Origin: Halodesulfurarchaeum sp.
GTDB taxonomy: Archaea > Halobacteriota > Halobacteria > Halobacteriales > Halobacteriaceae
Length of the DNA: 64,000 nucleotides
Assembly (NCBI GenBank): GCA_034520565.1
Contig: JAXHNL010000002.1
Coordinates: forward strand, 736,001 to 800,000
Reading direction: 5' to 3'
The translations under genes and the position numbers were made by a program. This document shows, one piece after another, positions 46,082-57,230 of the stretch (its first letter is position 1; every line of letters starts with the position of its first letter). The notes beneath the pieces are model-generated. The model had not been told where the DNA came from. It worked only from the letters and a program-made list of their open reading frames with translations, and made no database searches.

Positions 46082-47555
<1,474 letters not shown>

Positions 47556-47677: not shown

Positions 47678-47749
47678 GGGCCCATAGCTCAGCGGGAGAG
47701 CGCCGCCTTTGCAAGGCGGAGGCCCTGGGTTCGAATCCCAGTGGGTCCA
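47678..47749 (+). tRNA. tRNA-Ala(UGC) in the 16S-23S spacer
   Basis: GGGCCCATAGCTCAG...CCGCCTTTGCAAGGCGG...GGTTCGAATCCC...TGGGTCCA cloverleaf. Confidence 0.97.
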
Positions 47750-48002
47750 TGCCGGGTTCGGTCGAATCGTGCCCCTTAAGTGGGTCCGCGCGATTCGATC
47801 CGGTACGACGACCGATGCACCACCCGCGCAAGCGCGGGTGGGAAGGGTCGATGCACGCACCGGCTATGCACCACGGGGACGTGCGATGACGACCGTGTGT
47901 ACGTGCGATCCAGGCGTCCACTGGACTCGTTCATCATCCTGGCAGGTCACCGTGATACATCAGCGAAGTCACAGTGACTGCATCAGCGAGTTCACGCCAA
48001 TC

Positions 48003-50920
<2,918 letters not shown>

Positions 50921-50991
50921 TTCATTCCGCATCGACTCGTTTTCGGACGAGTCCGGGCGTAAACTGGATTGCACGTATACACGGTCGAGGA

Positions 50992-51050
50992 CCACCGATA
51001 CTGGTGTACCGAACGTTCGTTCGGTCGCGGTTCGATTCCGCGGGTCGGCG
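50992..51050 (+). other. tRNA-like (T-arm) structure directly upstream of the 5S rRNA
   Basis: GCGG-TTCGATT-CCGC T-arm abutting the 5S start; matches the mini-tRNA that tRNase Z cleaves to mature haloarchaeal 5S rRNA. Confidence 0.65.
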
Positions 51051-51281
51051 TTAAGGCGGCCATAGCGGCGGGGAAACACCCGTACCCATCCCGAACACGG
51101 AAGTTAAGCCCGCCTGCGTTCCGGCGAGTACTGGAGTGCGCGAGCCTCTGGGAAAACTGCCTCGCATTAGCGGGGGGCCAAGTGCAGGCCGAGGGGTGCA
51201 ATCGTCAGTACACGCAGGGTCCGTCCCGGTGGAAAGCGAGACCATCCTGTCGACGCCTGTAACTGGTGGTTCGCCGCCACC
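51051..51281 (+). rRNA. rrf: 5S rRNA, 231 nt, with a ~109-nt internal expansion segment
   Basis: Canonical 5S from TTAAGGCGGCCATAGCGG to CCTCTGGGAAAAC (51157), then extra sequence, then canonical TGGTTCGCCGCCACC (51267-51281). Confidence 0.93.
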
Positions 51282-51575
51282 ATTCATTCCTTCATTCATC
51301 ACGTTCGCGAGCGACAGCCACGTCGCTCGGGCGTTTCATACCGACGAGCGACAGCAACGTCACTCGGTGGGGTTCACAGGTACGAGGGACAGCCACGCGT
51401 GGTTCCGGGTGATCAGTTCCTTCGTCCCTGTATTTAACCCGAGACACACGAACGCATGACTCACGAGGACGGTCGGTGGAGATTGGTCGCACGCTCGCGA
51501 TTTGAAGTCAGCACACGGTATGGTCAAACCATGAAGGGTCACATCTATATACCGGGCAGTCTTGTCTGTTACTGT

Positions 51576-52568
51576 ATGACACGCAATACAAGCAGACGGC
51601 GGTTCATCCAGGCCGCCGGTGGCGCGTCCATCGTGGCGCTCGCCGGCTGTGCCGGAAACGGCGACGAGAATGGCGACGCGACCACAGCGGAACCCGAAGA
51701 GACGACCGAAGAGCAGGTCACCGCACTCTCGTGGCACGCGGGCGGCACGGGTGGAACCTACTACCCGCTCTCGAACGAATTCAAGACGGTCGTCGAGGGC
51801 AACTCCGAGTTCACCCTCAACGTTCAGTCCACCGGTGCGAGCGTCGAGAACGTCGGCAGCCTCTCCAACGGCGAGGCCGACTTCGCGTTGATCCAGAACG
51901 ACGTTGCATACTTCGCGAAGAACGGAACCGGGATCGATGCCTTCGACGGGAACGCCATCGAGAACCTCCGCGGGGTCGCGACGCTGTACCCCGAGACCAT
52001 CACGCTGGTCACCCTCGCTGACAGCGGGTTTACGGAACTCGCGGACCTCGAAGGGGCGACGATCAACACCGGTGACCTCGGTTCGGGAACACAGGTCAAC
52101 GCAGTTCAGATCCTGGAGGCGGCCGGCATCGAGAACTTCGACGAGCAGAATGCCTCCTTCTCACAGGCAGCCGACCAGTTGCGTGACGGTGACGTGGATG
52201 CCTCTTTCGTCGTCGGCGGCTACCCCGTCGGCGCGATCGAGGACCTCGCGAATACGAACGACATTCACATCATCCCGATCACCGGCGACAACCGCGCGGC
52301 GGCGAAGGACGCCGCCTCGTGGTTCGCCGACGATACCATCCCCGCCGGAACCTACACGGGCGTCGACGAGGACGTCGAAACCATCTCCGTGCAGGCGATG
52401 ATCGCGACGCGGGCGGAACTCCCCGCTGACACCGTCGAAAGCGTCACGGCAGCCATCTTCGACAACCTGGACGAGCTGACGACGAAGACCGACTTCATCA
52501 GCGTGGAGAGCGCCCAGGACGGCATGCCCATCGAGCTGCACGAGGGCGCTTCGGCCTACTTCGGCTAA
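51576..52568 (+). CDS. TAXI-family TRAP transporter solute receptor (Tat lipoprotein)
   Basis: SRRRFI twin-arginine signal, LAGC lipobox, GGTYYP, STGASVEN, ALIQND, LYPE, LHEGA. Confidence 0.93.
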   Translation: MTRNTSRRRFIQAAGGASIVALAGCAGNGDENGDATTAEPEETTEEQVTALSWHAGGTGGTYYPLSNEFKTVVEGNSEFTLNVQSTGASVENVGSLSNGEADFALIQNDVAYFAKNGTGIDAFDGNAIENLRGVATLYPETITLVTLADSGFTELADLEGATINTGDLGSGTQVNAVQILEAAGIENFDEQNASFSQAADQLRDGDVDASFVVGGYPVGAIEDLANTNDIHIIPITGDNRAAAKDAASWFADDTIPAGTYTGVDEDVETISVQAMIATRAELPADTVESVTAAIFDNLDELTTKTDFISVESAQDGMPIELHEGASAYFG

Positions 52569-52598
52569 CCGAAGGCGTCGAAACGCCACCATATCCGC

Positions 52599-53096
52599 AT
52601 GCGGGTCTTTGACTGGCCGGTTCGTCGATGGCTCCTGATTGCAGTCGTATTGGTCGCAGCGATCGGACTCGTCGGGGCGACCGCAAGTGGTCACACGCTC
52701 GTCGTCGAGCGGACGGATACGGGTGAGAAAATCATCGAGACTCCCGTCTCGAACGGGTCGGTCGTCGCACTCGAGTACACCCACAGCGTCGAGAAGACCC
52801 GAGTGTACGACGAATACACCGTCGTCGACACGACCCTCGAGAACACCCGGATGGAGTTCGAATCCTACGGCTGGGGATTGCCGGCCGGTGCGAACGTGAC
52901 GTTGGAGAACGGGACGTTCGTCTTCGATCCGGACCGGGAGTACGAACAGCTCCGGGTGAAACCTGGAACCGTGGCCAATCACACGCTGATCGTCGACGGC
53001 GAACGATACGACCTGGTCGAACGGAGTGACGCGAATTCGGTGATTATTCGGGTCAGTAGCGACACCCCCCTTACAAGGCTCCTCGCGGGCCACTGA
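52599..53096 (+). CDS. DUF1850-like protein of TAXI-TRAP operons
   Basis: N-terminal TM, YTHSVEKT, FESYGWGLP. Confidence 0.85.
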   Translation: MRVFDWPVRRWLLIAVVLVAAIGLVGATASGHTLVVERTDTGEKIIETPVSNGSVVALEYTHSVEKTRVYDEYTVVDTTLENTRMEFESYGWGLPAGANVTLENGTFVFDPDREYEQLRVKPGTVANHTLIVDGERYDLVERSDANSVIIRVSSDTPLTRLLAGH

Positions 53097-53098
53097 AG

Positions 53099-55831
53099 AT
53101 GACCGAAACCGAACCCCCGACGGACGAAACGCCGGTTCCGGACAGTGACGAGATCATTCAGAAACTCCAGCGAAAGCGATCGGTCGCCGGGTGGCTCGGC
53201 GTCCTCGTTGCCGCGATCGGCATCTCCTTTTCGGTCTTCCAGGTCATGCTCGCGGCCAAGAGTTTCTACTGGGATCTCCCCCTTCCGATCGTCGGGGAGA
53301 TCCGATTGGTGGGTCTGCAACTGTTGCAGGCAAACGCCGTGCACGTGAGCTTTGCGCTCGTGTTGACGTTTCTCCTGTACCCGCCGACGACGGGCGAGGG
53401 GATCATCGTCCGATCGTTTGGCCGGCTCTATTCGATCCTGGACGAGTTGGTCGGGGGCGTAAATCCGATGGGGCGTGCCCTCGAGGCGGTCCGGGGCGGG
53501 ATTCGATGGGCCTTCTTCGACCCGGACCAGGAACGGCTCACCCCGATCGACGTGGTGCTGTCGATCGTCGCGGCGCTCGCGGCGATCTACTTCCTCGCCG
53601 AATTCAGCGAGATCCAGAACATCCGGTTGTTCGGCCTCAGTTCGGGGGTACCGTTCTACGAAACGTTCCCGTTCGAGCCGCTGTTCGACGCGCTCCCGTT
53701 TCTCGAATTTGCGATCGGCGTGATTCCGGGTTCGGAGTTTCCTTACGCCTTCTTCCTCGGGATCGTCGGGGTGTTTCTCGTTTTGGAGGCGACCCGGCGG
53801 ACGATCGGCCTCCCGCTGATGCTCATCGTCGCGGGGTTCATCGTATACGCCCGCTGGGGGTACATGATCCCGGCTGACACCCCCTACGTCGGCGTGCTCT
53901 CGATTCCCGAACTCTCCTGGCAGGCGATCGTCCAGAACCTGTGGTACAACACCGAAAACGGGGTGTTCGGCATCCCGGTGACCGTCTCGGTGCAGTTCAT
54001 CTACATCTTCATCCTCTTCGGGGCGTTCCTCGAGAAGAGCGGTGCGGGCCAGTGGTTCATCGACCTCGCGTACGCAGGTACGGGAACGCGCACCGGCGGC
54101 CCGGCGAAGGCCTCGATTCTGGCGAGCGGGTTCATGGGCACGATCTCCGGCTCTTCGATCGCCAACACGGTCACGACCGGGACCTTCACCATCCCGCTGA
54201 TGAAGCGGTCGGGGTACGACGCGGAGTTCTCCGGTGCAGTCGAGGCAGCCGCCTCCTCCGGCGGGCAGATTCTCCCGCCAGTGATGGGCGCGGCCGCGTT
54301 TCTCATCGTGCAGTACACCGCGACGCCATTCGCGGACGTGATCGTCGTGGCGACGATCCCGGCGATCGTCTTCTTCTTCGGCGTGTGGGTGATGGTTCAC
54401 CTCAAAGCCGTGCAGTCGGGGGTCGGCGGACTCGACGCGAGCGAGCTCGTCGACGTGGGCGATCACCTCCGCCGGGGCTGGTTCTACCTCGCACCCATCG
54501 GCCTGTTGCTCTACTACCTGATCATCGAGCGGCTCTCCGTTGGCCGTTCGGCGTGGTACACGATACTCTCGATCGCAGCGCTCATCGCGCTGGTGGCCGC
54601 GTACAACGACGACACCCGTCGATTGGTTCCGCTCGCGCTCCTCGGGATCGCCGGGCTCAACTTCGTCTCGATGGTACTCTTCGGTGCCGATCTCCTGGGT
54701 CTGGTGATTACCGGGCCGCTGACGGCGCTGTCCCCCGCCGATGCCTTCGGCCGGGTGCTGGGCAATCTCGGCTGGTACGCGATCATCGCGGCCGTACTGG
54801 TGATGGGCACTCGCCCGATGATGCGATCGCCGCTGCTCTCGATGGACCCGGACGTCCAGAAGACCGCGAAAAACCTCTCTGGGGGTATCGGGCGTCCCTC
54901 CCTCGAAGACAACCAACTGTTCCGCTACGTCGCGTACACCGGCAACGCCATGGAATCCGGGGCTCGGACGGCCGTGCCAGTGGTCATCGCAGTCGCGGCC
55001 GCGGGCGTGATCCCGGGAGTCATCAGCGTGTCCGGGCTGGGACCGAACCTCGTTTCGCTCATTACGGAACTCGCGGCCGGGTCACTCGTCCTCATGCTCT
55101 TGATGACGGCGGTCGCCTCGATCATTCTCGGGATGGGGATGCCGACGACGGTCACGTACATCATCCTCGTCTCGCTTCTGGGCCCGGCCCTCGTGGCCTT
55201 TGGCATCGCCGAGTTGGCCGCCCACCTGTTCATCCTTTACTTCGGGGTGATCGCGGACATCACTCCCCCGGTGGCCGTCGCGGCCTACGCGGCTTCGGGG
55301 GTGGCCCAGTCCGACGCGTTCGAGACGGGGGTGAAGGCGTTCTCGCTGTCGCTCAACAAGGCCATCGTTCCCTTCGCCTTCATTCTCTCGCCGGGAATCC
55401 TGTTACTCCGGACGGGCGTTTCGGTCCCCGGCAGCGACAAGACCTACCGGGTGCTCACCGGGGGCGACCTGACCGAACTGGGCTTCGTCATTCCCGAGGT
55501 CGTCCTCCCGGTTATCGGACTCTTTCTCGGGGTCTACGCCCTCGGGCCGACGGTCATCGGTCACCTCTCCGCACCCCTCTCACGGCTCAGCCGGGCGGCC
55601 TTCGCACTGAGTGCGTTCCTGCTGATGGCCCCTGGACTGTTCGTCACGTCACTCTCGGATGCCCTCTCGGTCGTCGGCCTCGGACCGATTCCGCTCACGC
55701 CGACGCTGGACATCGGGCTCAGGGCGATCGGACTGGTCCTGTTCGTGCTCCTCTACGTTCGGGATCGCCGCACGGAGTGGGAGGGCCCGGCAAATCGGAG
55801 TGACGGACGGAGCGCGGAAGGGGCCGCCTGA
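53099..55831 (+). CDS. TRAP transporter fused permease (4TM/12TM)
   Basis: EATRR, GGPAK, SGSSIAN, EAAASSGGQILPPVMGAAAF, GMGMPTT, ADITPPVA. Confidence 0.94.
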   Translation: MTETEPPTDETPVPDSDEIIQKLQRKRSVAGWLGVLVAAIGISFSVFQVMLAAKSFYWDLPLPIVGEIRLVGLQLLQANAVHVSFALVLTFLLYPPTTGEGIIVRSFGRLYSILDELVGGVNPMGRALEAVRGGIRWAFFDPDQERLTPIDVVLSIVAALAAIYFLAEFSEIQNIRLFGLSSGVPFYETFPFEPLFDALPFLEFAIGVIPGSEFPYAFFLGIVGVFLVLEATRRTIGLPLMLIVAGFIVYARWGYMIPADTPYVGVLSIPELSWQAIVQNLWYNTENGVFGIPVTVSVQFIYIFILFGAFLEKSGAGQWFIDLAYAGTGTRTGGPAKASILASGFMGTISGSSIANTVTTGTFTIPLMKRSGYDAEFSGAVEAAASSGGQILPPVMGAAAFLIVQYTATPFADVIVVATIPAIVFFFGVWVMVHLKAVQSGVGGLDASELVDVGDHLRRGWFYLAPIGLLLYYLIIERLSVGRSAWYTILSIAALIALVAAYNDDTRRLVPLALLGIAGLNFVSMVLFGADLLGLVITGPLTALSPADAFGRVLGNLGWYAIIAAVLVMGTRPMMRSPLLSMDPDVQKTAKNLSGGIGRPSLEDNQLFRYVAYTGNAMESGARTAVPVVIAVAAAGVIPGVISVSGLGPNLVSLITELAAGSLVLMLLMTAVASIILGMGMPTTVTYIILVSLLGPALVAFGIAELAAHLFILYFGVIADITPPVAVAAYAASGVAQSDAFETGVKAFSLSLNKAIVPFAFILSPGILLLRTGVSVPGSDKTYRVLTGGDLTELGFVIPEVVLPVIGLFLGVYALGPTVIGHLSAPLSRLSRAAFALSAFLLMAPGLFVTSLSDALSVVGLGPIPLTPTLDIGLRAIGLVLFVLLYVRDRRTEWEGPANRSDGRSAEGAA

Positions 55832-57126: not shown

Positions 57127-57202
57127 GCCAAGGTGGCAGAGTCCGGCCTAACGCAGCGGCCTGCAGAGCCGCCCATCGCCGGTTCAAATCCGGCCCTTGG
57201 CT
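57127..57202 (+). tRNA. tRNA-Cys(GCA)
   Basis: GCCAAGG/CCTTGGC acceptor stem, GCGGC-CTGCAGA-GCCGC anticodon arm, GGTTCAAATCC T-arm, U discriminator. Confidence 0.96.
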
Positions 57203-57230
57203 CTTCTGACCGAGCGAAGCGAGGTCTGAG

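Follow-up and report, generated by a model that had tools for sequence, protein, structure and literature searches.

The window analysed here, a 64,000-nt stretch of DNA from a Halodesulfurarchaeum sp., carries a single rRNA operon on the + strand in the order 16S-tRNA(Ala)-23S-5S, as identified with Rfam and ARAGORN. The operon ends in a 5S rRNA gene of 231 nt, in which a 109-nt segment interrupts helix V. The features of the operon and of its last gene are the following:

46082..47555, + strand: 16S rRNA gene, the first gene of the operon (Rfam SSU_rRNA_archaea, 1582 bits)
47678..47749, + strand: spacer tRNA-Ala (TGC) (Rfam tRNA; ARAGORN)
47998..50924, + strand: 23S rRNA gene (Rfam LSU_rRNA_archaea, 2804 bits, full model)
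51026..51050, + strand: T-arm-like hairpin with an 8-nt tail, the end of the tail coinciding with the 5S 5' end (sequence; spacer alignment)
51051..51281, + strand: whole expanded 5S rRNA gene, 231 nt (sequence; alignment with relatives)
51051..51157, + strand: 5' part of the 5S core, with helices I-IV, loop E, and of helix V the 5' strand and the upper part (Rfam 5S_rRNA; consensus pairs)
51127..51154, + strand: core loop E-helix IV-loop D arm, with the layout AGUAC-19 nt-GGAA, 80 nt upstream of the distal element (pattern; consensus pairs)
51158..51266, + strand: 109-nt expansion segment that interrupts helix V on the stretch from loop E to the three-way junction (alignment with relatives that lack or have the insert)
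51160..51175, + strand: short arm of the insert, a 6-bp hairpin CCUCGC-AUUA-GCGGGG (RNAalifold; covariation)
51177..51267, + strand: long arm of the insert, three covarying helices with internal loops between them and the distal element as cap (RNAalifold; covariation)
51207..51234, + strand: distal element with the layout AGUAC-19 nt-GGAA, in which a loop-E-like AGUA/GAA internal loop borders a stem-loop that hardly varies (alignment)
51267..51281, + strand: 3' part of the 5S core, with the 3' strands of lower helix V and of helix I (sequence; alignment; consensus pairs)
51308..51397, + strand: three hairpin-forming units, CGAGCGAC..GTCGCTCG, spaced 37-38 nt, directly 3' of the 5S gene and outside the insert (sequence)

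The 5' half of the core closes with CCTCTGGGAAAAC at 51157 and TGGTTCGCCGCCACC opens the 3' half at 51267, TGGTTCGCC being the core sequence entered on leaving the 3' end of the insert. Without the insert the core measures 122 nt. Results of the alignment showed that the insert-free 5S genes of five relatives (G013, G019, G025, G028 and G006) close up exactly across 51158-51266, so that sequence and relatives together confirm the coordinates, the total length and the core length given in the original prediction. Since T51267 takes part in the closing pair of the long arm, the junctions could lie 1-2 nt away from where they are placed. The core itself is intact, as it aligns end to end with insert-free 5S genes and helices I-V were all recovered with canonical pairing. 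The Rfam 5S_rRNA model (RF00001) scores 89.1 bits against a threshold of 38 and calls the span 51052-51170, so that the beginning of the insert is taken for the 3' strands of helices V and I. Since the model is forced into the insert in this way, Infernal/Rfam-based annotation gives a false 3' end at 51170 and a gene of 119 nt, and the expectation that annotators would truncate the gene is borne out for this type of calling. When searched alone against Rfam, the insert matched no family and returned only a chance match to HIV-1 SL4 (E = 8.4). The insert had also been described as GC-rich: with a GC content of 64.2%, it is no richer than its surroundings (core 63.9%, window 64.5%).

We also looked at the sequences on both sides of the gene. 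The 23S-5S spacer is 126 nt long (50925-51050), and the T-arm-like hairpin at its end reads CGCGG-TTCGATT-CCGCG. This hairpin is kept, with compensating changes in the stem, in all ten haloarchaeal 23S-5S spacers aligned, whether the 5S insert is present or absent, and a second hairpin further upstream in the spacer, CCAG-GCGNNAA-CTGG, is likewise conserved. ARAGORN called no tRNA in the 23S-5S spacer, and the minimum free energy fold of the spacer is unremarkable (z = -0.91). In H. volcanii, tRNase Z is reported to cut a tRNA-like element and so to make the 5S 5' end (secondary statements in PMC3296008 and PMC7714728). By analogy with H. volcanii, 51026-51050 is likely to be a tRNA-like processing signal for the 5S 5' end. 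On the other side of the gene, the repeats at 51308-51397 may be an operon end or a processing signal, and a doubled unit resembling them also sits after the 5S gene of the relative G006. A scan for sigma-70 promoters and intrinsic terminators, with models ill-suited to archaea, gave nothing above shuffled sequences. Downstream of the 5S gene lies a TAXI/TRAP transporter set at 51456-55831 (NMT1_3 receptor, DUF1850 and a fused DctM permease by Pfam), beyond which a tRNA-Cys(GCA) gene is found at 57127-57203; a tRNA-Cys gene sits close behind the 5S gene in many haloarchaea. A dihydroorotate dehydrogenase-like ORF is found upstream (Pfam), and none of the flanking ORFs has a Pfam match with a link to 5S rRNA.

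The original prediction turned on whether the organism lies outside Halococcus, and it does. The 16S rRNA of the window is 97% identical to those of G001 and G010, which GTDB assigns to the same genus, and 94% identical to that of G013 from another genus; moreover, in a tree built on the 3' 1.3 kb of the 23S rRNA gene plus the spacer, the window groups with G007, G001 and G010. Considering the GTDB genus placement, the 16S identities and the 23S tree, the organism is a Halodesulfurarchaeum species and not a Halococcus. At 98% identity in 5S and 97% in 16S, it represents a species-level genome distinct from G001 and G010. Having one rRNA operon and a genome of about 2 Mb, the organism matches what has been published on Halodesulfurarchaeum (PMC5437934).

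We compared 40 relatives, of which 11 others belong to the GTDB same-genus set (g1). The window's own assembly (G000; 1.86 Mb in 2 contigs, 80.7% complete) has one match to the 5S gene, while G001 and G010, both 99% complete, have one full-length expanded 5S each, 98% identical to that of the window, making the expanded gene the only 5S found in all three, although the incomplete assembly of the window's genome leaves room for a second, normal copy there. G002 also carries one expanded 5S (95% identical), and G007 and G005 carry 5S pieces at contig ends with the insert included; in G003, G004, G008, G009 and G011 (71-98% complete) there was no 5S match. More generally, every complete genome that we saw with an expanded 5S has no other 5S type. 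The same gene as in the window was present in contigs of 18 public runs from 13 studies, the DNA metagenomes among them bearing labels such as hypersaline lake, mat, brine, soil and food.

One member of the same GTDB genus stands apart. G006, a MAG, carries a normal, insert-free 5S (L015, G006:C52:1-2023), and its 23S 3' end plus spacer is 86.2% identical to the window, against 86.7% for G019 of another genus and 91-94% for G007, G001 and G010. Two explanations suit G006: a deep branch in which the insert was lost or never present, or a MAG with a misbinned rRNA contig.

The structure of the insert was studied on an alignment in which 46 motif-bearing stretches gave 33 complete genes and, after removal of 5 identical rows, 28 distinct ones. 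RNAalifold on these 28 sequences predicted 58 pairs, 22 with compensatory change, covering the core helices, the hairpin at 51160-51175 and the long arm at 51177-51267. In the insert, the structure has 32 pairs in 5 helices, and 96.5% of the alignment cells at these pairs are standard pairs, against a mean of 81.2% in shuffled alignments, with none of 500 shuffles as high; the internal complementarity noticed earlier is real and exceeds chance. Pairs changed on both sides number 18 of 32 (shuffled mean 12.5) and the covariation score is 0.488 (shuffled mean 0.195), again with none of 500 shuffles as high in either case. The number of further pair types, 41, is close to the shuffled mean of 37.8 (57 of 500 shuffles as high). 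Controls in which the structure was slid along the alignment gave at most 51.4% paired cells and at most 8 pairs with two-sided change. The single-sequence fold of the 233-nt stretch is ordinary in energy (z = -0.49, with 64 of 200 shuffles folding at least as well), so that thermodynamics by itself is uninformative.

The changes are distributed unevenly over the helices. In the short arm (helix 1), two of four pairs changed on both sides and 100% of cells are paired; in most other lineages this arm has 4 bp and a GCAA loop. Helices 2-4 of the long arm show two-sided change in 16 of 21 pairs, and the distal hairpin (helix 5) has 7 pairs without any variation in the alignment. The insert thus has the shape of an asymmetric V, made of a short hairpin and a long unbranched arm, and its two arms meet the upper and lower parts of helix V in a four-way junction, the pairing of the core being undisturbed. 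As the stems keep pairing through many double changes while the tip is nearly fixed, the module is under selection.

The near-invariance of the tip is, for the loci found by motif scan, partly a matter of construction, because these loci were fetched with that very motif. We therefore turn to the 30 insert-bearing loci found by BLAST independently of the motif, 28 of which keep the full 27-nt distal motif. The two departures are G034, with one flanking base changed, and G181, which has AGCC in place of AGUA and is the only carrier seen without AGUA. The AGUA/GAA internal loop of the tip is presumably a loop E/bulged-G motif. The core loop E-helix IV-loop D arm has in common with the distal element both the layout and the 21-nt length of the hairpin, and sequence homology between them is absent. 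Counting both strands, the 1.86-Mb genome contains the AGUAC-19 nt-GGAA pattern, which was defined after being seen, 19 times, against 7 for a reversed control pattern; considering the genome count, two copies 80 nt apart are unlikely to be due to chance.

An origin of the insert from an internal duplication of the 5S gene was considered and found no support: the best local alignment of insert and core scores 15, with a shuffle mean of 15.3 and 1096 of 2000 shuffles as high. The two AGUAC..GGAA arms agree at only 5 of their 19 middle positions, and the positions of loop and bulge differ. Given the absence of homology between insert and core sequences, we regard the distal tip as an architectural look-alike of the core arm and not as a duplication of it. 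This likeness is not mentioned, as far as we found, in the articles PMC7812874 and PMC7530397 taken apart from their supplements.

The expanded 5S has a well-known precedent. A 231-nt 5S rRNA was described in Halococcus morrhuae by Luehrsen et al. 1981 (cited within PMC7812874), and its insert is retained, as revealed by direct RNA sequencing and by cryo-EM density in the 50S subunit (PMC7812874, PMC7530397). In the cryo-EM study of H. morrhuae by Tirumalai et al. 2020 (PMC7530397), the four-way junction was visible and density was obtained for about 40 of the 108 nt of the insert, which is flexible and unpacked on the subunit, with a faint hint of density toward helix 38. Stepanov & Fox 2021 (RNA 27:133; PMC7812874) then reported the H. 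morrhuae-type expanded 5S in 15 archaeal strains belonging to Halococcus, Halalkalicoccus, Halomarina and Halodesulfurarchaeum, four genera among the 257 Halobacteria genomes surveyed, in which it is the sole 5S type. The same authors placed the insertion between core positions 104.1 and 105, drew the archaeal insert as an asymmetric V with a short hairpin and a long arm, named the distal stem-loop as the most conserved part and a candidate functional domain, and suggested horizontal transfer between carrier groups; according to them, retention of the insert is solidly confirmed for H. morrhuae only.

The gene of the window agrees with this description in its complete core, in the site, length and homology of the insert, in the asymmetric V, in the conserved distal stem-loop and in being the only 5S type found. 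Its insert and that of H. morrhuae DSM 1307 (L058) fall in the same columns of the alignment and are 76% identical, the core being 91% identical. The two 5S genes are alike in the length of 231 nt, the site in helix V by loop E, the short hairpin and long arm, the distal motif and the four-way junction. They differ in the short hairpin, which has 6 bp and an AUUA loop in the window and 4 bp and a GCAA loop in H. morrhuae, and in the large internal loop, which reads GUCGAC in the window and GUUACAAC in H. morrhuae; the GUCGAC form is common to Halomarina, Halocatena and Actinarchaeum. With the published Halodesulfurarchaeum 5S (PMC7812874), the gene agrees in genus, site, structural type and in being the sole 5S type. 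The prediction that the element is an H. morrhuae-type expansion is thus upheld by the common site, the insert identity and the common structure, and the proposed alignment to the Halococcus insert with a covariation check found the two inserts homologous, with the 18 doubly changed pairs reported above. The further suggestion of a new lineage or of a newly shown transfer of 5S fails, because Stepanov & Fox 2021 (PMC7812874) already list Halodesulfurarchaeum and propose horizontal transfer. The element is the published Halococcus-type 5S expansion, in a genus already known to carry it. Bacterial 5S expansions, of the Thermoanaerobacterium type and others, are likewise independent modules on an intact core, patchy in distribution and overlooked by annotators; they differ in their sites (helix III bulge, loop C and others), in their unrelated sequence and in often standing beside a normal 5S (PMC7812874).

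We also asked how widely the expansion is distributed. A scan for the distal motif, with one genome per species, gave 35 stretches. Outside the four published genera, the hosts comprise Actinarchaeum halophilum (on both chromosomes), YIM A00010, YIM A00013, Halocatena marina, H. pleomorpha and Halorutilus salinus, as well as a Halovenus MAG, a Haloarculaceae MAG, two records named 'Halobacteriaceae archaeon' and several unclassified MAGs. The new-host loci L040/L051, L059, L062, L061, L035, L088/L090, L034 and L050 stand for A. halophilum, the two Halocatena species, Halorutilus salinus, the Halovenus MAG, a second genus of family f7 (g59) and two Halobacteriaceae records.

We then ran BLAST, independently of the motif, on 400 genomes of the class that are at least 90% complete and on the window's own genome. 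A 5S match was obtained in 390 of the 401 genomes; in at least 26 of them the match was full-length, hence with insert, and these 26 belong to five GTDB families. These figures are lower bounds, as a divergent insert would look like a core-only match and the matches listed exclude 541 weaker ones. By family, the insert was found as follows:

Family f1: at least 3 of 23 genomes, all of genus g1
Family f18: at least 6 of 7 genomes, in genus g52
Family f7: at least 10 of 11 genomes (g20 8/8, g59 2/2)
Family f2: at least 5 of 83 genomes (g82 3/3, g87 1/1, g50 1/4)
Family f11: 2 of 2 genomes
Families f6 and f13: 0 of 152 and 0 of 101 genomes among the matches listed
Families f17 and f8: 0 of 9 and 0 of 8 genomes among the matches listed
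Families f12 and f5: 0 of 2 and 0 of 3 genomes among the matches listed

Two more f1 genera with the insert, represented by G012 and G014, came from the comparison of 40 relatives. In genus g50 of family f2, the insert occurs in G181 (L087) only, and the matches in G093, G302 and G408 are core-only. A limited literature search found no reports of the newer hosts; the Halorutilus paper, as far as we found, does not mention 5S rRNA, and one 2025 paper mentions a 5S expansion in Haloarcula. In addition, G036, of another family, has two tandem 5S core matches about 197 nt apart (L022/L030; G036:C7:10-112 and 207-306), so that haloarchaea do have tandem copies, on which unequal recombination could act.

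Taken together, the gene is very probably the sole 5S of a Halodesulfurarchaeum species carrying the known Halococcus-type expansion, with the insert retained in the RNA. Contigs from RNA libraries (four runs from four studies) span 50996-51249, 51107-51257, 51047-51223 and 51039-51187. At the 5' junction (51157|51158), three of the four run across by 31 letters or more in both directions, and the fourth has 30 on one side. No joints or loose ends were reported in these contigs and no spliced form was seen, the 3' junction at 51266|51267 lying outside their cover, as all four stop short of 51258-51281. RNA-library contigs may include DNA and show neither ends nor levels, and they weakly support retention of the insert. 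Retention is argued more strongly by the expanded gene being the sole 5S in two 99%-complete genomes of the genus and by the retention of the homologous insert in H. morrhuae. If the insert were instead an intervening sequence or intron, excised with or without religation, the mature 5S would be of normal size or fragmented. PMC7812874 allows for excision in all expanded 5S other than that of H. morrhuae, and the 3' junction, as said, is without RNA contig cover; we nonetheless regard excision as improbable, given the direct evidence for H. morrhuae (PMC7812874, PMC7530397) and the contigs of three RNA libraries that run from core into insert without a reported joint. Moreover, the covariation-supported pairings put both junctions within the four-way junction, neither junction lies in a 3-nt bulge and no 4-bp helix joins the ends of the insert when a bulge-helix-bulge is sought by eye, and a near-fixed tip with compensated stems across five GTDB families would be an unusual constraint for a discarded spacer. 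A 5S pseudogene in decay, or a chimera made in assembly, is hardly credible as a reading of the gene: the Rfam model does fit only a truncated gene and the window's own assembly is incomplete, but the core is intact with canonical pairing, the gene has its normal position in the only rRNA operon, and the same gene recurs in the separately assembled G001 and G010 and in the public contigs from 13 studies.

A more likely alternative takes the segment to be a functionless, tolerated passenger, spread by homologous recombination through the conserved 5S flanks and folded only to spare the core. Its distribution is indeed patchy: on a 23S tree of 63 of the 71 rows (8 with little or no upstream sequence were left out, and the rows are enriched for carriers), the state of the insert changes at least 7 times, and the low occupancy of family f2 and genus g50 points in the same direction. 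The insert-only tree (36 rows, 29 different, built without G181, G174, G108 and seven Halococcus rows) places Halococcus, Halalkalicoccus, the Halovenus MAG, G012 and G014 in one starred clade, with the Halodesulfurarchaeum genus outside it. An AU test rejects a single clade for the f1 inserts (p = 0.005), a value obtained on 108 non-independent columns, with those 10 rows left out and for a group named after the alignment had been seen. Inserts of different families can also exceed 23S identity, as between Halococcus sp. and Halalkalicoccus G274, where the insert is 96% and the 23S 90.6% identical; this closeness fits either exchange or strong constraint. The flexible, unpacked density in H. 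morrhuae (PMC7530397) would equally suit a passenger. Against this reading, the tip persists in 28 of the 30 copies detected without use of the motif, even as the helices next to it turn over, and the expansion is the sole 5S in every complete genome seen. The window insert, 95% identical within the genus, shares only 62-79% with those of the 16 other lineages compared, which leaves no recent donor among those sampled, and over 153 non-independent pairs the identity of the insert broadly follows that of the 23S (Spearman 0.51). On balance we consider a functionless passenger possible, though somewhat doubtful. Gain and loss are not separable on these trees without a rooted species tree.

For a gene read as the sole and retained 5S, the course of events would be as follows. 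The 5S would be transcribed together with the rest of the 16S-tRNA(Ala)-23S-5S operon, at whose end it lies, and its 5' end would be cut after the tRNA-like element ending at 51050. The insert would stay in the mature 231-nt RNA and project into solvent from the central protuberance, as shown for H. morrhuae. Our best guess, put forward only tentatively, is that the tip, in which a loop-E-like AGUA/GAA loop closes a 21-nt hairpin, could be a docking site for a protein or rRNA partner; a fixed docking partner is unsupported by cryo-EM, because the H. morrhuae insert is flexible and unpacked on the subunit (PMC7530397).

In conclusion, for this window little is at stake, since the element, its genus and the idea of transfer are already in print. 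The practical value lies in a warning for annotation, as callers built on Rfam/Infernal report a false gene of 119 nt here. Judging from the wider survey, the host range in print for the expanded 5S seems out of date, and this wider range, the insert-free relatives G006 and those of g50, and the loop-E-like tip are modest leads, the recognisable architecture of the conserved tip offering a concrete bait for a partner search. A broader reading, which we think rather unlikely, would be that the 5S expansion is an old, selected module of the Halobacteria, often lost and sometimes exchanged, whose tip, built like the core's loop E-helix IV arm, would serve a 5S-binding protein or an element of the 23S as a second docking arm. 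Its antiquity would be indicated by the hosts, namely the deep-branching Halorutilus, Halocatena/Actinarchaeum, two further Halobacteriaceae genera, a second Halococcaceae genus and scattered Haloarculaceae.
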